Notes: a model not told the origin generated them from the sequence alone. DNA of 64,000 nt from a virus (IMGVR_UViG_3300046727_000675:1-64000); one strand, 5' to 3'. Shown: positions 3,845-18,150, counted from the first letter of the stretch. Translations and numbers: made by a program.

Positions 3845-3923
3845 GGGCCTACCTCGTCCTCGCGCTGCCGTGCCTGCTGTTCGTCCTCGTGGTGTGGCGC
3901 GTCGCGCGGTCGCGGAGGGTCTC

Positions 3924-8593: not shown

Positions 8594-10819
8594 TTGGCCA
8601 GCCCGAACAATTCGATTGTCATCCGCCCGCTGACGCAGCTGGCGTCGCTGTTCTCCGACAAGAAGCCGGCGTTCGAGGCCCCGGCGGGCTACATCGAGGG
8701 CGTCGACGCCGCGAAGTGGCCGTCGCCGCTGCAGCCCGTCGCGCCGATGGGCCCCGCCGGCACCGAGCCGAAGGCCTTCCAGTTCTACGAGGGGCAGAAC
8801 CTGCAGTGGACGCCGCGCTTCGACGCGGAGTACTCCGCCGCGGACCTCAAGGCGCTCGCCACCTACCCGCTCGTCCGCATCTGCATCGAGAACGTGAAGG
8901 ACGTGATCTGCGACATGCCGTGGCAGATCCGGCCGCGCCCGACGCCGGGCGAGTCGATCAAGGAGAACGCGAAGCGCGCGGCCGGCGACAAGGCGATCCT
9001 GAAGGCGACGCGCTTCCTCGAGCGCCCCGACGGCCAGCACACGTGGGACGAGTGGCTGCGCCCGTGGCTCGACGACCTCATCGTGATCGACGCGCCCACG
9101 GTCCTGGTGCGCCGCAACTTCGGCAAGGGCACGCGGCCCGGCGGCGACGGCGACCTCCGCGAGCTGCGCGTCCTGCGCGGCGACTCGATCTCCGTGTACA
9201 TCGACCAGAACGGCTGGAGCCCGAACCCGCCGTCGATCGCGTACGCCCAAAACTGGTGGGGCCTGCCGCTCGTGGACATGACGCGCGACCAGTGCCTGTA
9301 CCGCCCGCGGAACATCGCGCCGCGCAACACGGTGGCGTCGCAGCTCTACGGCTACTCCCCGGTCGAGCAGCTCGCGCCGGAGCTGCAGATCGGGATCGCC
9401 CGTCTCGCGTTCGTCCTCGCCTACTACAAGGACGGCTCGGTGCCGGGGGTCGTGCAGGTCGCGCCGAAGGGGACGACGCCGGAGCAGATCAAGGAGGCGG
9501 CGCAGTGGATCAACTCGGACATCGCGGGGAACCTCGCGAAGCGCCGGCAGTGGAACATCATCCAGGGCTTCCAGGAGGACGGGAAGGCCGAGCAGATCAT
9601 CATGACGAAGGAGCCGCTGCTCGCCGACCTCTACGACGAGAAGCACATCCGCGAGGTGGCGTTCGGCATCGGCGTCAGCCCGCAGCGGCTGATGAAGTCG
9701 ATGAACCGCGCGTCGGCGGAGCAGTCGGACGACGCGGCGGAGACCGAGGGCACGCGGCCGTACGTGCGGTCGGTGCGCGGCCTCATGAACCACGTGCTGC
9801 AGGTGGTGATGGGGCTCGAGGAGTACGAGTTCGTCATCGACCCGGTCAAAGAGCTGGACATGGCGAAGCAGGCCGAGGCGCTGACGGCGAAGGTCGGCAA
9901 GGCGCTGATGACGCCGAACGAGGGCCGCGAGGCGCTGGGCCTCGACCGCGACCCGACGCCCGAGGCCGACAAGCTCGGCGTGATCACAGGCACGGGCTTC
10001 GTGACGCTCGAGCAGACGGCGCAGGCGGCGAACACCGCGGCGCAGGCCGCAGTTCAACCGGGAGGGAAAGATGGCGGTGATAACGCGCCGGTGGGTAAGC
10101 CGGGAGGAGCTGGAAAGGGAGCGGACGCGGGAAAGTCCGCGCGCTCGAAACCTAATGGACATGATCCAGCGGAGGATCATCGCGTACCGCGACCAGTTAA
10201 CTCGCTCGGGTTCGCCGCGGGAGCCGCGCCCGTAGCGCCTCCGGCGGTCGGCAAGTACTCCGAGGACGAGGCGCGCGACGAGCAGGGGCGGTGGACAGAG
10301 GGCGGAGAATCTTCGGCTGATGAGAAGGAGAAGTTGAGTAAAGCATTATGGAGCTGGCAGTCGGGCAGCGATGATGAAGGGGCAAAGGCCGAGCATTACA
10401 TCCAATCGGGCGAGCCGGAAGGCAGCGAGATCGTGAAGGGCATCCGGAACGAGACCTTCGGCGTGACGGCCTGGCGCGGCATGTTCGTTGAGAACGACGA
10501 CGCGATCCTTAAGCTGAAGACGGGGGACACGCTGCAGCTGATGCCGAGCTCGTTCAGCGATGACCGTAAAGTAGCCGCAAAGTTTTCAACGGGTGAGACG
10601 CTCGGGATGGAGGGCGAAAAGGGCTGGGGTGGGGTCATATTGCGCGTTAACAAGACCGCTGATGGGGCCGAGCCGCACGGCATCATGGTCGGCGACCGCG
10701 GTCATCCGGCTTGGCGGCAAGAAAATGAGATCATCACCGGCGGTCAGTTCACCGTGACGCGCGTCAACAAGTCGAAGAAGGCTACAACGCTTTTTATCTC
10801 GCAGAAGGGGATATTCTGA
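8594..10819 (+). CDS. Portal protein with a C-terminal ADP-ribosyltransferase-like extension
   Basis: Portal motifs 'LYGYSPVEQ', 'YYKDGSVPG', 'AFGIGVSPQRL', 'MTPNEGREALGL'; then a linker, the KYSED tag and an R-S-E motif set (WRG, SSFS, QENE). Confidence 0.9.
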   Translation: MASPNNSIVIRPLTQLASLFSDKKPAFEAPAGYIEGVDAAKWPSPLQPVAPMGPAGTEPKAFQFYEGQNLQWTPRFDAEYSAADLKALATYPLVRICIENVKDVICDMPWQIRPRPTPGESIKENAKRAAGDKAILKATRFLERPDGQHTWDEWLRPWLDDLIVIDAPTVLVRRNFGKGTRPGGDGDLRELRVLRGDSISVYIDQNGWSPNPPSIAYAQNWWGLPLVDMTRDQCLYRPRNIAPRNTVASQLYGYSPVEQLAPELQIGIARLAFVLAYYKDGSVPGVVQVAPKGTTPEQIKEAAQWINSDIAGNLAKRRQWNIIQGFQEDGKAEQIIMTKEPLLADLYDEKHIREVAFGIGVSPQRLMKSMNRASAEQSDDAAETEGTRPYVRSVRGLMNHVLQVVMGLEEYEFVIDPVKELDMAKQAEALTAKVGKALMTPNEGREALGLDRDPTPEADKLGVITGTGFVTLEQTAQAANTAAQAAVQPGGKDGGDNAPVGKPGGAGKGADAGKSARSKPNGHDPAEDHRVPRPVNSLGFAAGAAPVAPPAVGKYSEDEARDEQGRWTEGGESSADEKEKLSKALWSWQSGSDDEGAKAEHYIQSGEPEGSEIVKGIRNETFGVTAWRGMFVENDDAILKLKTGDTLQLMPSSFSDDRKVAAKFSTGETLGMEGEKGWGGVILRVNKTADGAEPHGIMVGDRGHPAWRQENEIITGGQFTVTRVNKSKKATTLFISQKGIF

Positions 10820-13800
10820 CCGTGCAGATTGTCGAGTACAACTCGGAGCTGTTGACGGTGCCATTCGACCCGCAGCGGATGACGCGCGGGAAGACGGAGA
10901 AGCTCGCCAAGTACTCGGAGGACGAGGCGCGCGACGAGCAGGGACGGTGGAGCTCTTCCGGCGGCTCCGGCGAGAACCGCCAGTTTCTCGACATCGTCGC
11001 CGAAGACCACGGGGCGAAGGTTGACTCGAGCGGCGTGACGGGCTCATTCGAACTGAAGCGCGACGAGACGTTCTACCGCGCGGAGGCCAATCCCGATCGC
11101 GCGCGGCGCTCTGGGTTGAAGGCGAGCCTGCCGCCGGAGGTAGCGGAGGGCGCCGACAAGGAAGATCACAAGGCCCTGACCGGCGTGTACCTCACCGATA
11201 AGGAGACGGCGACCGCGTACTTGAACGGACGCCTCGATGGCAAGGGCGAGGTGATCGCGGTCCATCTTCCGGAGGGGACGAGAATCTACCAGGACCCCGT
11301 GGACGACGAGGCGATCTTCGTGCGGGAGAGCCTTCCATCGCACGCGGTCGAGGGCGGCAGGCAGATGAGGGTATTCAAGCTCTCCCACGGCGACGCGCGG
11401 ACGATCATCCACCCGGGGCGCCTAGCGCCGACGTCGATCCTGGCGAAGCACCGGCTCGAGAAGATCCTGGCCAACGCCTTCGGCAAGATGCGCCGGAAGA
11501 CGGTGCGCGCGCTGCGGCGCGAGGCGGGGATCGCGGCGAAGGCGCTGCTCTCCAAGCAGCGCAAGTTTGACTCCGTGCAGTTCAATCTCGACGAGGCGGA
11601 CGCAAAGAAGGTCCTCGCGATCGCGGTCGACGAGCAGGACTGGGACCCGAAGGGACGCGACCTCGAGCCGCACGCCACGGTGCTGTTCGGCTTTGACGGC
11701 GCGACGTTCGACCAGGTCGAGGCGCTCACGCGCGGCACGGGTGACTGCCCCGCGGAGCTCGGCGAGCTGTTCTGCTTCCCGGCCGGAGACCACGGGTCGC
11801 CGCTGGTGATCCGGTTGAAGTCGCCGGAGCTGGTCGCGCTGCACGACAGGCTGTCCGCGCTGCCGCACACGGACACGCACGATGAATACATCCCGCACGT
11901 CTGCGTCGGCTATCTTAAGCCCGAGGCGGCGGAGAAGTATGTCGGTAAAGACTATGCGGGCCAGGGTGAGACGATCGTCCTCAAGGATCTGATCTTCTCG
12001 CTGCGCGACAAGACGCGCTTGTCGTTGGAGAAGGCGCTCGAGTATCTGAAGTATAGTGAAGATCAAGCAAGAGATGAGAATGGAAGATTTGCGTCTGAAG
12101 AAGACTCTGAGGGACGCGCAAAAACAATTTTGTACCATGGAACTACCGAAGAGGTAGCAAAAAAGATTTTTGATGAAGGATTAGACGCTTCAAGAGCTCC
12201 TGGGGGAACCTTTGCCACTGATTCCAAGCTTAGCGCGTTGGGGTACGCGAAGGGAGGAGCAAAATTTGAAGCTATTGAACGGGGAATGTCGAAGGAAGAT
12301 CGTAACAATCAATTAATCGGATTGGTGATCATAAAAGACCCCGAAAAAGCGGGGTTCAAGTATCTTCAAGGAGCCCCGGGATATTATTCTTCTACTAGCA
12401 ATGTTTCTCCTAACTTTGTAGATCGTGTTGAATTTTATAGATATGGAGATATATCGTCTTCAAATCCAAAACCAGCAAAAATTATTTCTAAAAATGCGTC
12501 AAAAAATAGTGTGGAAATTTACGTTCCAATTTTACTGAAAGAAAGTAAGACTGAGAAATTTACGAAGGCACTCGACGACGCGACGCAGCAGATCCTCGAC
12601 TCGCTCGCCGCGGAGTGGGAGGCGCTGGCGAAGGCCGCCGTCCTGCCGCTGACCGACGCGTCGACCGCGGGCGCCGACGCCGGCGCGCTGCAGCTCGACA
12701 TCACCGGCGACGACATGCTCGGCCGGGTCAACACCGTGGCCCGGGAGTGGGCCGCGGACCGCGCCGCGGAGCTGGTCGGCATGCGGTTCACGGATGACGG
12801 CGACCTGGTTCCGAACCCCGACGCGCGCTGGGCGATCTCCGATACGACGCGGGAGAGGTTGCGCGACGCGATCGCGCGGGTCTTCGCGGAGGAGCAGCCG
12901 ACGCTGAAGGACATCGAGGACGCGATCGCGGACGCGGGGATCTTCGACGACAACCGCGCGACGATGATCGCCCGGACCGAGGTCAGCCGGGCGCAGGCGC
13001 AGGGGAACCTCGACGCCTGGAAGACGAGCGGGATGGTCGAAGAGGTCAACTGGGTCCTGTCCGACGATCACGATGACGATGATATCTGCAATGAGAACGA
13101 AGAGGAGAGCCCGTACGCGCTGGGCGAGGTGCCGGAGTTCCCGGCGCACCCCAACTGCATGTGCGGGCTGACGCTCGGCCGGCTGAAGGGCGAGCCGGAG
13201 GACGCGGAGAAGGTGCTGAAATACTCGGATGACGAGGATCGCGACGAAAATGGACGTTGGACCGGTGGTGCCACGCACGGAACGTCGGTGTCCGCGGCGA
13301 AGAAGATCATGAAGGAAGGAATTAAATCAGGAAAAGTTTTAGGAAATGGGCAGCTCGGCTCTGCCTATGTCTCGCGCGACCCCGTGGTGGCGTTGTCGTT
13401 CGCGAAAGAAGCTGGGATGAACGAGTACACGCGGCTTTATCCTAACGCGCGCGTCGCTGAGCTTGACAGCAAAGCGAAGGCCGCTCTCGTGGTTCTCAAG
13501 CCTGGCGTAGAAAATAATTGGACACAGGAGCCCGATCGCCAGATTTTTAGGACCGAGAAGACGATTCCGGCTTCTAAGATTGATCGTGTGGAGATTTATT
13601 CGGTGAAGTCGATCAAGGATAGCATTGGCACGGGAAGTCTTCCGACCCCGGAAAAAATTATTCGCAAGGACGCTTCATCATCTGAGGAAGACACATTTTA
13701 CATCGCGGCAATCTTTGAAGAGAATGCGGAGGAGAGCTAGCATGCCATACTCGACCGTAGATCAGGTTCCGTCCTACGTGCCGGCGGGAAAGCGCGCGCA

Positions 13801-13969
13801 GTGGATGGCCGTCTGGAACTCGGCGCGCAAGGCCGCGCTGAAGGACGGGATGCCGGACAAGGACGCGGAGGCGAAGGCGTTCCGCGAGGCCAACGGCGTC
13901 GCCGGGCCCGGGTCGGAGAAGATCACGAAGTATAGTGACGACCAAGAACGCGATGATCATGGACGTTGG
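10253..13969 (+). repeat. Dispersed 42-nt / 14-aa repeat K-YS[ED]D[EQ]xRD[ED]xGR[WF], five copies
   Basis: Copies at 10253-10294, 10909-10950, 12049-12090, 13219-13260 and 13928-13969; the first two are near-identical at DNA level. Confidence 0.95.
10822..13740 (+). CDS. MuF/SPP1 gp7-like head morphogenesis polyprotein with three ART-like domains and a 2H phosphoesterase (Acb1-like) domain
   Basis: MuF core 'RATMIARTEVSRAQAQG...W...C...PAHPNCMC'; HATV and HVCV 2H motifs; YHGT and HGTS ART motifs; three KYS[ED]D tags. Confidence 0.85.
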   Translation: MQIVEYNSELLTVPFDPQRMTRGKTEKLAKYSEDEARDEQGRWSSSGGSGENRQFLDIVAEDHGAKVDSSGVTGSFELKRDETFYRAEANPDRARRSGLKASLPPEVAEGADKEDHKALTGVYLTDKETATAYLNGRLDGKGEVIAVHLPEGTRIYQDPVDDEAIFVRESLPSHAVEGGRQMRVFKLSHGDARTIIHPGRLAPTSILAKHRLEKILANAFGKMRRKTVRALRREAGIAAKALLSKQRKFDSVQFNLDEADAKKVLAIAVDEQDWDPKGRDLEPHATVLFGFDGATFDQVEALTRGTGDCPAELGELFCFPAGDHGSPLVIRLKSPELVALHDRLSALPHTDTHDEYIPHVCVGYLKPEAAEKYVGKDYAGQGETIVLKDLIFSLRDKTRLSLEKALEYLKYSEDQARDENGRFASEEDSEGRAKTILYHGTTEEVAKKIFDEGLDASRAPGGTFATDSKLSALGYAKGGAKFEAIERGMSKEDRNNQLIGLVIIKDPEKAGFKYLQGAPGYYSSTSNVSPNFVDRVEFYRYGDISSSNPKPAKIISKNASKNSVEIYVPILLKESKTEKFTKALDDATQQILDSLAAEWEALAKAAVLPLTDASTAGADAGALQLDITGDDMLGRVNTVAREWAADRAAELVGMRFTDDGDLVPNPDARWAISDTTRERLRDAIARVFAEEQPTLKDIEDAIADAGIFDDNRATMIARTEVSRAQAQGNLDAWKTSGMVEEVNWVLSDDHDDDDICNENEEESPYALGEVPEFPAHPNCMCGLTLGRLKGEPEDAEKVLKYSDDEDRDENGRWTGGATHGTSVSAAKKIMKEGIKSGKVLGNGQLGSAYVSRDPVVALSFAKEAGMNEYTRLYPNARVAELDSKAKAALVVLKPGVENNWTQEPDRQIFRTEKTIPASKIDRVEIYSVKSIKDSIGTGSLPTPEKIIRKDASSSEEDTFYIAAIFEENAEES

Positions 13970-15703
13970 ACCGAGGCAGCTTCAACCAAGAAAGATCATC
14001 GTGATGCTATGAAGTGGCACGACGCGAAAGCGGCGGAGGAAGAAGCTGCAGGACATCCGGTGACGGCAGATTACCACCGTGAAGCTGCAGGAAAACATCA
14101 ATATGCGGTCAGCATGGCAGGGAAAAATGGTCCTGGTGTTGACCCGGATCATTCAAAATCAGCAAATCGATCTTCAAAAGAAGCTAACCGGGCTTCTCAG
14201 TACGCGGCAAGACAAGATAAAGAAAAATCATCAGGAGGTGAAATGAAGAAGACCGAGGTGCCGGACAACGAGAAGCAGAGCCAGGTCGGGGTCGGCTACG
14301 AGAACCCGAGCTCCCGGCCGGGCGCGACGTGCGCCGGCTGCGTCCACTTCATCTCGCCCGACCGCTGCGAGCACGTGCAGGGCCCGATCGCCGCGGCGGC
14401 GTGGTGCCTGAAATTCATCAAGTGCGCTGAGGAGGAAAAGACCGTGACGACGACGCTCAAGAAGTTCATCCCGTTCGCGAAGGTGGACAACTCGATCGAC
14501 CCCGCGACCAAGCTGCCGCGCCGCGAGGTGTGGGGCATCGTCACCGCCGAGGTCCCCGACAAGGAGGACGAGGTCTGCGACTACGCGAAGTCAAAGCCGT
14601 TCTACCAGGCGGTGATCGACGAGATGTCCAAGGCCACGGACGGCAGGAACATGTTCCCGCTGCGCGAGATGCACGGGCTCTCCGCCGCGGGCAAGTGCAT
14701 TGGCTTCGAGTTCCGCGACGCCGACCGCGAGATCTTCATGGGCTTCAAGGTCGTCGACGACCAGGCCTGGAAGAAGGTCGACGAGGGCGTGTACACGGGC
14801 TTCAGCCAGGGCGGGTCGCTCGTCGGCGCGCTGGCGCCGGACCCGGTCTTCGAGGGCTGCATGCGCTACACGGCGAACCCGAGCGAGGTGTCGCTGGTCG
14901 ACAACCCGTGCCTCGCGGCCGCGCACTTCGCGTACGTGAAGGCGGACGGCTCGGTCGAGCTGCGTAAGTTCAAGCGGACGGAGGTCGCGCCGACGTCTAC
15001 GCGGCTCGAGAAGCTGGAAAAAGAAGTTGCGGATCTTCGTAAGGCGACGGGCACGGCCCCGCTCACGAAGACGGTCGACGGCGAGGCGCTCGCCGCGGAC
15101 GCGTTCGCGATCGCCGGCGACGCGAAGAAAGTTTCCACGTGGCGGCTGCCGCTCAGGTTCGCGACGAAGCAGAAGTCGGCGGCCTACGTGGCGCGCGCCG
15201 CGCTGCTCGTCAAGTTCAGCCCGAGGCTGTTCACGGACGCGGAGGCGAAGCAGGCCCTGAAGGCGATCGCGACGGCCGCGGACTGGGCGGGGGTGGACCC
15301 GCTGGCCGTCGTCCTCGAGTTCATCAAGGTGGGCGACCTCCTGCGCGGCGGGCTGCGCAAGCGCGTCAACAAGCTGGCGAAGACCCGGGACCCGGGCCAC
15401 CGGCTGAGCTTCGTGGACGCGGACCTCGGGAAGATGTCGATCGTCGCGCAGCGCCCGGCGAACGCGCAGGCGGACCTGGAGAAGGGCATGTACGAGGTCG
15501 GGCAGCTCGCCTGCCTCGTGCAGCAGCTCTCGTACCTCGTCTACGCCGCGGTGTACGAGCGCGAGCAGGAGCAGGACGGGTCGCTTCTCCCGCAGGACCT
15601 GACGGAGAACGTCGACGCGCTGCTCGACACGCTCGTCGCGATGCTCGCCGAGGAGGCGGGCGAGCTCAGCGAGGAGCTGAACTCGCGGGCCCACGGCGCC
15701 TAG
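13742..15703 (+). CDS. Prohead maturation protease (XkdF/HK97-like) with N-terminal ChaB-like, His-rich and HiPIP-like domains
   Basis: 'MPYSTVDQVPSYVP...WMAVWNSA' is ChaB-like; protease core 'VWGIVTAEVPDKEDE', 'LREMH', 'YTGFSQGG', 'EVSLVDNPC'. Confidence 0.85.
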   Translation: MPYSTVDQVPSYVPAGKRAQWMAVWNSARKAALKDGMPDKDAEAKAFREANGVAGPGSEKITKYSDDQERDDHGRWTEAASTKKDHRDAMKWHDAKAAEEEAAGHPVTADYHREAAGKHQYAVSMAGKNGPGVDPDHSKSANRSSKEANRASQYAARQDKEKSSGGEMKKTEVPDNEKQSQVGVGYENPSSRPGATCAGCVHFISPDRCEHVQGPIAAAAWCLKFIKCAEEEKTVTTTLKKFIPFAKVDNSIDPATKLPRREVWGIVTAEVPDKEDEVCDYAKSKPFYQAVIDEMSKATDGRNMFPLREMHGLSAAGKCIGFEFRDADREIFMGFKVVDDQAWKKVDEGVYTGFSQGGSLVGALAPDPVFEGCMRYTANPSEVSLVDNPCLAAAHFAYVKADGSVELRKFKRTEVAPTSTRLEKLEKEVADLRKATGTAPLTKTVDGEALAADAFAIAGDAKKVSTWRLPLRFATKQKSAAYVARAALLVKFSPRLFTDAEAKQALKAIATAADWAGVDPLAVVLEFIKVGDLLRGGLRKRVNKLAKTRDPGHRLSFVDADLGKMSIVAQRPANAQADLEKGMYEVGQLACLVQQLSYLVYAAVYEREQEQDGSLLPQDLTENVDALLDTLVAMLAEEAGELSEELNSRAHGA

Positions 15704-15779: not shown

Positions 15780-16418
15780 ATGAAGATTCAACTCGAAGAC
15801 CTCGTGAAGGCGCACTCGGGCCTCGCGAGCCACTTCACGAAGGCGGCGGAGTTCCACGCCGCGGCGCACGACCTGCACAAGGCCCACGCCGCGTTCGCGA
15901 AGGCCACCGCCGACGGCATGGAGGACGGCGACGTCCACAAGGGCTACTTCACGAAGGCCGCCGGCCACCACGAGGCGCACGCCGCGCTCCACAAGGGCAT
16001 GGCGGAGCACTCCGCCGGCATGGCCGCGGGCATGAACACCAAGGCCAAGGAAGTGGACCCGAACGACAAGGACGCCGTCGCGAAGGCCGCGCGGGAAGAG
16101 GCCGAGGCCAAGGCCGCGCTCGAGGCCGCCGCGGGCGGGACCGAGTCGGCGCTCGACAAGCTGATGACGGAGACCGTCGCGCGCGTCACGAAGAAGGCGC
16201 TCGAGGCCTTCGAGAGCGATCCGGCGATCGCCGCGCGCATTCAGGAGGGCGTGTTGAGCCGCGTGAACGCGGTGTTGGGAAGCACGATCGTCCCGACCAA
16301 GGTGAAGGGCGCGTTCGAGACGGCGCCGACGCTGATCAGGCGTCCCGGCCAGCCGGACCCGTCCGCCGCGGAGGTCGAGAAGGTCGACGCGTCGCTCCAG
16401 GACCTGGTGCAGGCGTAG
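15780..16418 (+). CDS. Probable scaffold protein (His/Ala-rich helical)
   Basis: Position between protease and capsid genes; strong AAGGAG RBS. Confidence 0.6.
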   Translation: MKIQLEDLVKAHSGLASHFTKAAEFHAAAHDLHKAHAAFAKATADGMEDGDVHKGYFTKAAGHHEAHAALHKGMAEHSAGMAAGMNTKAKEVDPNDKDAVAKAAREEAEAKAALEAAAGGTESALDKLMTETVARVTKKALEAFESDPAIAARIQEGVLSRVNAVLGSTIVPTKVKGAFETAPTLIRRPGQPDPSAAEVEKVDASLQDLVQA

Positions 16419-16488: not shown

Positions 16489-18150
16489 ATGAAGATTCCA
16501 CAGGAGCTATACGCCTACGCCACGCTCGAGAGCCGCGGGCAGATCGCGAAGGCGCTGCAGGACAAGGGGGTCGAGAGCCTCGTCAAGGCGGCTCGCGCCA
16601 TCCCGCCGAAGGAGTGGTCGCTGGACCATCCACTCGTCAAGAAGGCGGGCCGCACCCTCGTCAAGGCCGGCGTCACCACGTCGCTCGGCTTCAACTTCTT
16701 CGACCTGCGCGGCCCCGCGCTGATGATCTTCCCGCTGCTCACCCCGTTCATCCAGATGATCGGGCGGCAGGGCAAGGTCAACGCGGGCGTCGGCACGGCG
16801 GCGCACTGGAAGGCCACGCGCAACCCGAACTCGAACTACACCTACGCCGGCGTCCAGGAAGGGCAGCGCAACGCGACGGCGACCCCGGACGAGATCGACT
16901 ACCTGGCGACGTACAAGGAGCTCGGCATGGAGGGCGGCGAGACCTTCACCGCGCAGTACGCGGGCGAGGGGTACACCGACAACCTGGCCGACGAGCACTT
17001 CCGCAACCTGGCGCGCCTCCGGCTCCAGGAGGAGATGATCACCCTCTGGGGCAACTCCGGCGTCGCCACCGGCAACAACGGCTTCGCCCTCGGGCAGGCC
17101 ACCACACCGACGCTCACGCTCGGCGCGGGCACGAGCCCGTTCGGGAACGCCGCCAACGTGTACGTCGCGGTGGTCGCGATCACCGGCATGGGCGTCAACC
17201 CCGGCGGGCAGGCCGGCTACGCCGCGCCGCCGACGGTCGCGGGCGGGCTCACCACGAGCTACACCCGCACGAACGCCGACGGCACGACCATGAACGTCAG
17301 CGCCGGCGTCAGCGCGATCTCGAACGTCTCGGCCGCGCAGCTCACGAACACGACCGCGCAGCAGGTGAACGCGTCGATCCCCGCGATGAAGGGCGCCGTG
17401 GCCTACGCGTGGTACGTCGGCGTCAACGCCAACTCCACGATCGGGACCCTGAAGCTGGTCGCGATCACCGCGTGGCCGTCGGTCACGCTGAAGACGCTGC
17501 CGGCGGTGGGGGCGCAGGCCGGGAACGCGGCGGGCCTCTCCGTCGACAACTCGTTCCAGCCCACGGACTTCGACGGGCTCGGCTCGTACTCCTTCACCAA
17601 GGGGAACTGGACGGACATGAACGGCGGCTCGTTCACCCCGCAGGGCAACGGCCAGGTGGCGGAGATCGAGTCCGACCTCGCCTTCCTCTGGGACAACTAC
17701 CAGGCGCAGCCGGACGCGATCTGGTGCTCGGCGGACGTGCGCGCCGCGCTCGAGTCGGCGATCATCTTCTCGTCGACCGGGCAGAACTCGTTCATCTTCC
17801 AGTACGACCGGGCGACGCAGGACTCCGGCCTGCTGGGCGGGTTCATCGTCAGCGCCTACAAGTCGAAGTACTCGATCAGCCCGACGGGCGGCGTGGCGAT
17901 CCCCATCCGGATCCACCCGATGTTCCCGGCCGGCACGCTCGTGTACGACATCAACACGAACCCCTACCCGCACTCCAAGGTCCCGGCGGTGCGGCAGTTC
18001 CTCATGCAGCGCGACTACTACTCGATCGAGTGGCCGATCGTCACGCGCATGTGGACGTTCGGCACGTACGTCCACGAGGTGCTCGCGCACTACATGCCGT
18101 GGATCACGGCGATCCGGACCGGCGTCGGCCCGTTCGTCAAGCCGGCCTAA
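16489..18150 (+). CDS. Major capsid protein with a Thr/Gly/Ala-rich insertion domain
   Basis: Synteny, highly biased codons, HK97-fold-like segments ('EEMITLWGN', 'DFDGL', 'IPIRIHPMFPAGT'). Confidence 0.85.
   Translation: MKIPQELYAYATLESRGQIAKALQDKGVESLVKAARAIPPKEWSLDHPLVKKAGRTLVKAGVTTSLGFNFFDLRGPALMIFPLLTPFIQMIGRQGKVNAGVGTAAHWKATRNPNSNYTYAGVQEGQRNATATPDEIDYLATYKELGMEGGETFTAQYAGEGYTDNLADEHFRNLARLRLQEEMITLWGNSGVATGNNGFALGQATTPTLTLGAGTSPFGNAANVYVAVVAITGMGVNPGGQAGYAAPPTVAGGLTTSYTRTNADGTTMNVSAGVSAISNVSAAQLTNTTAQQVNASIPAMKGAVAYAWYVGVNANSTIGTLKLVAITAWPSVTLKTLPAVGAQAGNAAGLSVDNSFQPTDFDGLGSYSFTKGNWTDMNGGSFTPQGNGQVAEIESDLAFLWDNYQAQPDAIWCSADVRAALESAIIFSSTGQNSFIFQYDRATQDSGLLGGFIVSAYKSKYSISPTGGVAIPIRIHPMFPAGTLVYDINTNPYPHSKVPAVRQFLMQRDYYSIEWPIVTRMWTFGTYVHEVLAHYMPWITAIRTGVGPFVKPA

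Follow-up and report, generated by a model that had tools for sequence, protein, structure and literature searches.

Why has a phage placed one short peptide five times in its portal, MuF-domain and prohead protease proteins, each time in front of a non-structural domain? The locus lies in IMGVR_UViG_3300046727_000675:1-64000, the first 64 kb (~68% GC) of a record of an uncultured virus in IMG/VR that has 87,304 nucleotides (nt) and is rated 100% complete; this whole stretch is called the window below. An initial annotation had proposed that the peptide, here called the tag, heads swappable cargo that the protease releases in the prohead. The mobile unit is the tag, a Gly/Ser-rich linker and one effector-type domain of ~100-175 amino acids (aa). 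Codon usage and the comparison with relatives show that units have been spliced by recombination into domain borders of the portal, MuF and prohead protease, and a profile search shows the same header at the start of modules in thousands of phage head-associated polyvalent and prophage toxin-like proteins.

Five tag copies, their carriers and their cargo

A six-frame scan with the pattern K-Y-S-[ED]-D-[EQ]-x-R-D-[ED]-x-G-R-[WF] finds exactly five copies and none elsewhere in the 64 kb, in agreement with the initial annotation on their positions and on their distribution over the portal (1), MuF (3) and protease (1) genes:

10253-10294, + strand: tag 1 (KYSEDEARDEQGRW), portal aa 554-567; resident-like codons, with a GC content at third codon positions (GC3) of 1.0
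10909-10950, + strand: tag 2, aa 30-43 of the MuF open reading frame (ORF), i.e. 30 aa from the ORF start
12049-12090, + strand: tag 3 (KYSEDQARDENGRF), MuF ORF aa 410-423; GC3 0.14
13219-13260, + strand: tag 4 (KYSDDEDRDENGRW), MuF ORF aa 800-813; GC3 0.50
13928-13969, + strand: tag 5 (KYSDDQERDDHGRW), protease ORF aa 63-76; GC3 0.36; predicted to be disordered

The carriers belong to a head module on the + strand (8.6-18.2 kb) that encodes, in order, the portal, MuF protein, protease, a 212-aa ORF and the capsid. Their genes and defining domains are as follows:

8594-10819, + strand: portal gene, 741 aa, with a portal domain (aa 94-449), low-complexity linker, tag 1 and C-terminal effector domain; stop codon TGA at 10817-10819
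10822-13740, + strand: MuF-domain polyvalent protein, 972 aa; starts at GTG behind a ribosome-binding-like GAAGGGG, in a frame that differs from that of the portal
12601-13218, + strand: MuF (SPP1 gp7-like) head-morphogenesis domain, aa ~600-799; resident codons, GC3 0.95
13742-15703, + strand: prohead protease ORF, 653 aa from MPYS...
14462-14971, + strand: assemblin-fold serine protease domain, aa 241-410

The carrier identities proposed at the outset are upheld by family or fold matches. The portal matches Pfam PF04860 at 7.7e-18 and phrog_2662 at 8e-47. The MuF domain matches PF04233 at 1.1e-4, which is below the Pfam cut-off, phrog_1657 at 1.2e-13, phrog_2662 at 7.5e-15 and the NCBIfam SPP1 gp7 model TIGR01641 at 1e-4. 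For the protease, sequence libraries gave Pfam S78_2 (expect value, E, 0.13), phrog_34096 (E 0.009) and a weak PF14550. The AlphaFold2 model of the protease, made with 120 homologues (mean predicted local distance difference test score, pLDDT, 83), resembles T4 gp21 (5jbl; Foldseek probability 1.00, E 9e-4, template modelling score 0.59-0.65) and more weakly the herpesvirus proteases, and both His311 and Ser355 are invariant across the 120 homologues. The carrier of tag 5 is accordingly a prohead protease of the assemblin/gp21 fold.

Resident parts of these genes have a GC3 of 0.89-0.99 (portal core 0.93, MuF domain 0.95, protease 0.99, capsid 0.99). The tag and cargo values are 0.14 and 0.35 for the unit of tag 3, 0.50 and 0.60 for that of tag 4, 0.36 and 0.34 for that of tag 5, and 1.0 and 0.74 for tag 1 and the portal cargo. 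For tag 3 the switch in codon usage falls between the K codon (12049), which is resident, and the Y codon (12052), which is foreign, and resident usage is back near 12568. For tag 5 the Lys codon is again resident and the switch is exactly at Y (13931), with resident usage back near 14243. Because GC3 drops at three tags, at two of them exactly at the first tag codon, tag and following domain together are an imported cassette. At least three of the five units derive from DNA of much lower GC.

Related phages were represented by 80 viral loci with up to 10 kb of flanks, in which a tag was called at 12 bits or more. A portal was seen in 59 of them and a MuF domain in 62, mostly fused in one ORF. 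Tags occur in just three of the 80, namely L186 (protease), L202 (a degenerate copy in the portal and two in MuF) and L226 (MuF), and the tag is therefore accessory in this lineage; L202 has the same MuF-tag-ADP-ribosyltransferase layout as the window. Among the 120 protease homologues, four are tagged (that of the window, P0032, P0069 and P0090). These four share one tag site, behind the N-terminal module, and in each a His-rich unit follows; minimal homologues begin at the protease domain. The proposal that the cassettes are swappable thus held up, on the composition breaks at the tags as well as on their scattered presence in relatives. When the MuF ORF was compared with phages by tblastn, only its MuF and 2H domains were matched, all below 35% identity, so there is no close cultured relative.

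Portal and MuF form one fused ORF of 770-1130 aa in most related phages (among L184-L262). In the window they are split by the TGA, and MuF restarts 2 nt later at GTG in the other frame. Tags 1 and 2 are nearly identical (45/48 nt, or 94%, according to a DNA repeat finder) and flank the inserted ADP-ribosyltransferase (ART), the stop codon and a new leader of 29 aa; the remaining copies have 65-81% DNA identity to their reference copies. The window phage has split an ancestral portal-connector-(2H)-MuF gene and has loaded that gene and the protease gene with five tag-headed units. In L202, the portal ORF (start nt 3869) holds a decayed tag at aa ~598, in which YSEDQPR is followed by VPAGEANGG. 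This suggests that tags may erode after cargo loss.

What do the tags precede? The segments behind them, with the connector and the untagged domain that lie between tags 2 and 3, are listed here:

10295-10816, + strand: cargo 1, R-S-E type ART-like domain; GC3 0.74
10951-11340, + strand: cargo 2, family not assigned; about aa 44-173, ~125 residues
11341-11550, + strand: conserved connector, not cargo; shared with related phages, where it lies between portal and MuF
11551-12048, + strand: 2H phosphoesterase/Acb1-like domain; PF13563 2.6e-7, PF23474 5.4e-6; GC3 0.89, no tag in front
12091-12567, + strand: cargo 3, ART-PolyVal-like; PF18760 E 0.002-0.005 (below cut-off), NCBIfam KptA 0.0017; GC3 0.35
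13261-13737, + strand: cargo 4, ART-PolyVal-like, aa 814-972, the C-terminal end of the MuF protein; GC3 0.60
13970-14242, + strand: cargo 5, His-rich three-helix unit; AlphaFold2 helices 83-102, 106-126 and 135-164, pLDDT 82-95; GC3 0.34

Four ART-like domains and one His-rich helical domain had been claimed. The His-rich unit stands, and of the ARTs one is probable, two are plausible and one is unproven. The nearest language-model clusters of cargo 1 are phage ADPrib_exo_Tox proteins (0.97, 189 shared features); it has no Pfam or PDB sequence match, and its homologue in P0227 begins 8 aa after a tag. Cargo 4 is a paralogue of cargo 3 (BLASTP 1e-7 to 12091-12600), and a word-based search for longer relatives of this ART-PolyVal-like cargo returned the window's own protein only. 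Cargo 2 has weak leads to an ART (0.90; Tox-ART-HYD1/Arr-ms/PARP), with recognition below the mark, and no Pfam match. The last ~70 residues of the segment after tag 2, before the 2H domain, are connector rather than cargo; phmmer matches to 18 related ORFs cover query residues 130-198 of the 10951-11550 segment. The effector-type content of the MuF ORF is thus one 2H/Acb1-like domain, two ART-PolyVal-like domains and one domain of unassigned family. Homology of cargo 5 to the His-rich 212-aa ORF was considered and rejected (E 0.17).

The 2H domain is found, also untagged, at the same place in eight related ORFs (L190, L205, L208, L209, L211, L216, L219 and L220), and the Acb1-like phosphoesterase is an old resident of the portal/MuF lineage. 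In these relatives (E 1e-38 to 1e-46) it lies between portal and MuF or at the portal C-terminus.

The tag in viral and prokaryotic genomes

Is the peptide peculiar to this phage? A degenerate DNA pattern in which Y, S, D, R, D, G, R and W are the only fixed residues gave at least 100 matches in at least 79 viral loci of IMG/VR, at least 16 of them with 2-4 copies. At scored positions, 96 of the 100 listed matches keep Q/E as the fifth residue, a P/E/A-like sixth residue and R. Positions left free by the pattern are also conserved among 115 distinct tags: K (63), F (15), R (10) or A (10) before the Tyr, Q (87) or E (25), P (64), E (26) or A (16), an acidic residue (95), and T (73) after the Trp, followed by a Gly-rich run. 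In the tag alignment R, D and G are invariant, and Y, D and R are above 90%. From the scan and the conservation of the free positions it follows that the tag is neither a chance match nor a local feature of the window. Three to four chance matches (L019, L051, L065 and L044) were left in the segment sets used with Pfam below and were taken out of alignment A3.

A profile of 33 columns made from 117 tags was searched against 1.84 billion cluster representatives and matched 3,368 protein clusters at E<=1e-3, 633 at E<=1e-10 and 68 at E<=1e-30. The best-matching proteins are 800-3,800 residues long, and each has 4-10 matched stretches. In such giant proteins the canonical tag alternates with variants, for example [FW]-D-[PE]-x-[QK]-[PH]-P-R-D-x-x-G-R-[WF]. 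In the 150 best-scoring proteins, neighbouring tags are a median of 255 residues apart (interquartile range 192-334), and few of the proteins carry their last tag close to the C-terminus (5th percentile 155 residues). A regular expression located tags in 142 of these proteins, and 73 of the 142 have their first tag no more than 60 residues from the N-terminus; in many tag proteins a leader of just 2-25 residues precedes the tag.

The polarity of the tag was examined with Pfam in up to 300 residues on either side of each tag in the viral loci. The 102 upstream segments include Phage_Mu_F in eight cases and four portal families in ten (PF04860, PF06074, PF05136 and PF21919 among tag-bearing phages), and no MuF or portal family was found by Pfam in the 116 downstream segments. 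These hold ADPrib_exo_Tox (6), ART-PolyVal (5), Zeta toxin (3), DUF7178 (3), GNAT (3) and ART (2), and in single cases a Pesticin-type lysozyme, DNA methylase, His phosphatase, NUDIX, CdiA-type RNase A, glucosaminidase, Fic, glutamine deamidase, PFIN and the proteases S78_2 and Mu-like_Pro. The expectation that diverse enzymes would follow the tag in other phages was thereby borne out, and in many phages the portal, MuF and protease genes have variable non-structural domains that are genuinely marked by this portable tag. Given this polarity and the placement of the tag both at N-termini and inside proteins, it is the head of a module, found at gene starts and inside polyproteins.

Known families do not account for the tag itself. 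Pfam found no meaningful family in 117 tag windows, and no NCBIfam model covers a tag in the three ORFs and two tag proteins that were searched. The clusters of ten tag proteins are all metagenomic and without informative names. A 25-aa tag stretch gave no tblastn match in GenBank phages, as is expected with so short a query. When the six-tag protein P0122 was compared with phages and plasmids by tblastn, the listed rows all fell in residues 646-1073, with minor head, MuF-type and portal proteins. The PDB profile search returned one weak match (E 0.19) of QPRDASGRF and a Gly-rich stretch to residues 83-99 of 9RKU chain Af, a 454-aa protein of the phage 7-7-1 baseplate core, which is not relied on. 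Should this match be real and the stretch resolved, it would give the sole structure of the motif.

Could so uniform a peptide be a mere junction? The initial annotation had suggested that the repeat DNA is a recombination anchor. As a side effect this is plausible, with composition breakpoints at either tag edge and tags 1 and 2 being so alike, but it is not the main cause of conservation, because the peptide is kept with differing codons (GC3 0.14 to 1.0). A stronger form of the idea is that the peptide has no dedicated biochemical role and is a tolerated linker which has spread by descent with recombining effector cassettes. The breakpoints, the 45/48 nt match of the copies that flank the inserted ART and stop codon, the accessory nature of tags (3/80 loci) and the analogy to polymorphic-toxin demarcation motifs would all fit. 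However, the amino acids are kept over that whole range of GC3 and over 3,368 clusters, most copies in the window (65-81% DNA identity) are too diverged for efficient homologous exchange, and a neutral linker would not keep 8-10 near-invariant residues. Since the peptide is kept despite the codon usage and the diverged DNA, selection acts on the peptide, and a junction by descent is distinctly unlikely.

The same DNA pattern was applied to one genome per prokaryotic species and gave at least 83 matches in at least 80 loci, with 49 tag-like cases among those listed. Nitrospirillum, Azospirillum sp. B4, Caulobacterales and Rhizobiales contribute many of them, and there the tag joins a conserved N-terminal domain of 115-155 residues to variable C-termini, one of them Ntox50 (relative L162). 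These tag genes adjoin small ORFs and a helix-turn-helix gene, and proteins identical to theirs are found in IMG/VR 'provirus' records alongside an S78 protease. This use of the tag is polymorphic-toxin-like. Two such families are represented by L089, L098, L111, L131 and L152 (Nitrospirillum, Azospirillum) and by L143, L148 and L158, with several copies per genome; their N-terminal domains match no Pfam family, and their C-termini look HExxH-like and lysozyme-like by eye.

These prophage proteins raise the possibility that the tag acts in the infected cell, where a host or phage factor would read it for localisation, activation, timed degradation or neutralisation. In the Nitrospirillum, Azospirillum and Caulobacterales families, including the one with Ntox50, the tag precedes toxin-type domains in proteins without a recognisable portal or MuF part, and a universal partner would fit the uniform tag. 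We regard this as quite improbable: no partner suggests itself, the strong association with head genes would become secondary, and plasmid records gave no tag matches outside MuF domains in a search that was insensitive.

Proposed release of the cargo from its carriers

If the tag is the head of a module, what is it for? Our tentative answer, which may well need revision, is that the five peptides are a portable module header for cargo in the prohead, which is freed by the protease upstream of the tag, with the tag as a docking or handling element. As the carriers are assembled into the prohead, the cargo would ride in with them. The assemblin-type protease would then cut the resident hydrophobic-x-Lys directly upstream of the tag, like the L-x-K of the capsid leader, and the result would be free effectors that begin with the tag. 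The tag, with its 13 conserved residues and its disorder when alone, would go beyond marking a site of cleavage; most likely it would be a shared element for docking or handling in processing, and it may also be used for exit with the DNA. Such a common role would explain why a cassette still works after transfer between unrelated phages. Recombination at the tag would be a by-product that speeds cassette exchange.

Release by the protease and a retention or ejection signal, both proposed in the initial annotation, are reasonable hypotheses, and the support for cleavage by the prohead protease is circumstantial. One part of it comes from the capsid:

16489-18150, + strand: major capsid protein, 553 aa; phrog_13692 aligns from residue 60
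16663-16665, + strand: capsid Lys59, the end of L-x-K directly ahead of the conserved core; candidate site of the maturation cut

In 47 aligned capsid N-termini, P3 is Leu in 39 and P1 is Lys in 44 before the core, a pattern that fits a putative maturation cut after L-x-K. A hydrophobic-x-K also stands ahead of each of the five tags, as had been noted (VGK, LAK, YLK, VLK and ITK), in a phage whose protease shows the gp21 fold and the invariant His and Ser. For tags 3 and 5 the x-K is written in resident codons ahead of a foreign tag, which would suit a cut site provided by each phage itself. Across tag proteins, the residue before the tag is identical within a protein in 81% of tag pairs versus 47% (maximum 53%) in 500 shuffles. 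Tag 5 (residues 63-76) spans the two lowest-confidence blocks of the protease model (pLDDT 39 and 56), so that the tag is disordered there, and a flexible Gly-rich linker follows the tag. Among 44 tag-bearing contigs of at least 15 kb, S78 or S78_2 was seen in 22, Mu-like_Pro in 4 and ClpP in none, a tally that has no base-rate control and in which many contigs are fragments.

Besides that last limit, several points weigh against release by cleavage. Lys precedes only 63 of 115 and 316 of 471 tags (55-67%), with F, A, R, W or D elsewhere, and in variant tags the Lys is one residue further off. Hydrophobic-x-K is common, accounting for 88 of the 168 lysines in the three proteins; such sites had also been said to mark other domain borders, where they are not above chance. 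The sameness of the pre-tag residue within a protein could come from module duplication, and the conserved L-x-K of the capsid may be structural. The near-invariant core of 13 residues far exceeds known prohead protease needs. Untagged embedded cargo exists, as with the 2H domain here and in eight relatives, and a tag at an N-terminus behind only 2-25 residues has no carrier from which it must be released. Neither tblastn queries, which were insensitive, nor a cluster look-up found a cultured phage that has the tag. A complex predicted for the protease domain (aa 236-415, 120-row alignment) with the 33-residue tag alignment scored 0.02 and 0.00 and is counted neither way. The idea of an N-degron, in which a cut exposes Tyr, Phe or Trp, was set aside, as Lys and the aromatic residue are not adjacent in variant tags.

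Some of these points would suit a handle that works without cleavage. Here the tag would be a docking motif for a conserved partner in the prohead or exit channel, used for loading, retention or ejection, and the polyproteins would stay intact. With its long invariant core the tag resembles a binding epitope rather than a site of cleavage. By itself it is disordered, it leads into a flexible Gly-rich linker, it is common at N-termini with very short leaders, and it works after transfer between phages of very different composition. However, modules fused to a portal, MuF protein or protease need no loading signal, and one tag per module, with up to ten in a protein, is hard to explain for an undivided chain. 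The portal families also differ (PF04860, PF06074, PF05136 and PF21919), so there is no obvious conserved receptor. This makes an intact handle unlikely.

The reading of a header on cargo that the protease would free can be extended to tailed phages in general, as a universal two-part signal made of a phage-specific cut site and a universal 13-residue header. It would allow any enzyme domain to be spliced into any prohead protein, released by the prohead protease and handled for delivery with the DNA. The cut site (here hydrophobic-x-Lys) would come from the resident gene and the header, YSxDQPRDxxGRW or the HPRDxxGR[FW] variants, would travel with the cassette. In this general form the proposal is possible but doubtful.

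Known systems and the remaining head genes

Phage-carried effectors, such as ARTs, anti-CBASS 2H enzymes and toxins, decide the first minutes of an infection. To our knowledge, the routes by which arbitrary enzymes get into and out of capsids are known for only a few model phages. In T4, the ART Alt and internal proteins are carried in the head and processed by gp21. The T4 capsid targeting sequence has about 10 residues, is N-terminal and is not known to be conserved between phages; it precedes the cut, which falls after L/I-x-E, and is thereby removed. The window shares with T4 a prohead protease of the assemblin fold and, as predicted, an ART carried in the head, and its short signal may likewise be linked to a hydrophobic-x-residue cut site. 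The window peptide, however, lies after the presumed cut, is internal in three of five cases, is repeated and is uniform across unrelated phages. None of the five tags is at the extreme N-terminus of its ORF (aa 554, 30, 410, 800 and 63), and elsewhere about half of the first tags are N-terminal.

Polymorphic toxins have demarcation motifs, such as VENN in CdiA and the DPxGL-type end of the Rhs core. Like these, the tag is short and conserved, immediately precedes variable domains and coincides with recombination breakpoints; it differs in sequence and carriers and has several copies per protein. RDxxGR[WF] may resemble the YD-repeat turn. In giant phages the cut sites of ejection proteins are three-residue motifs. 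Their prohead protease cleaves many head-packaged ejection proteins at maturation (SPN3US gp245; PMC7411985, PMC10052503, PMC5694885), whereas no conserved 13-residue header or cassette mobility appears in the part of that literature considered here.

The nearest class is that of the phage-type polyvalent proteins (Iyer, Burroughs, Anand, de Souza, Aravind 2017, PMC5512222), which in the main text of that paper have several effector domains per polypeptide and genes that lie among the head genes. MuF or portal is joined there to ART-PolyVal, 2H phosphoesterase and other domains, and packaging in the capsid and delivery have been proposed. The window MuF ORF likewise holds at least two unrelated effector-type domains, and it is likewise encoded among head genes in the order portal, MuF, protease, 212-aa ORF, capsid. 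Proteolytic processing is discussed for some members (P1 DdrB and DarA) by an in-chain zincin-like peptidase, for which the three window ORFs have no Pfam match. No repeated header peptide is described in the main text, and the supplements may hold alignments with the motif. In the MuF polymorphic toxins of temperate phages (Jamet et al. 2017, PMC5576092), MuF is followed by a variable C-terminal toxin domain, which is the same arrangement as MuF, tag 4 and ART in the window, with the same exchange of toxin modules. The main text of that paper mentions no junction, linker or motif of the tag kind, and the modules of the window are also found N-terminal to MuF, on the portal and on the protease.

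To call the locus an undescribed system, as the initial annotation did, was therefore too strong. The class, with polyvalent proteins and toxin fusions of MuF and portal, is known; the header peptide and the codon-precise cassette borders are new. Motif strings and wider terms retrieved no relevant paper on the tag peptide, and it has no Pfam or NCBIfam model. The locus gives a view at single-codon resolution of head genes acquiring foreign effector cassettes. A uniform portable header in 3,368 clusters would offer a sequence handle for virion cargo in metagenomes and would show where modules begin in giant proteins that lack annotation. Should its role be confirmed, it could be used as a simple tag with which chosen proteins are loaded into phage heads, and if the two-part signal is true, thousands of phage lineages would possess a natural, transferable tag for protein delivery.

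The remaining features of the protease ORF and its neighbour are these:

13742-13927, + strand: N-terminal helical module of the protease ORF, ~58 aa; pLDDT >93
14294-14431, + strand: small Cys-rich domain like the high-potential iron-sulfur proteins (HiPIP); Foldseek 3h31 probability 0.97 over 52 columns, NCBIfam iron oxidase Iro 4.2e-4
14972-15700, + strand: helical C-terminal part of the protease protein, scaffold-like by AlphaFold2 secondary structure
15780-16415, + strand: His-rich ORF between protease and capsid, 212 aa

The N-terminal module of 58 residues (MPYS...VP...KR.QW..V.NSA) heads the protease ORF or a separate MuF ORF in relatives (27 matches; L185-L223). It may resemble ChaB-like proteins; Pfam did not detect it. 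The Cys-rich domain sits between the His-rich unit and the protease domain, and the homologues P0002, P0032 and P0069 have similar inserts. The 212-aa ORF is His-rich and helical, has an internal 51-nt repeat (15894-15944 and 15948-15998, 73%) and is probably a scaffold or decoration protein; it has no family match, and homologues are found at the equivalent place in L186 and L202.

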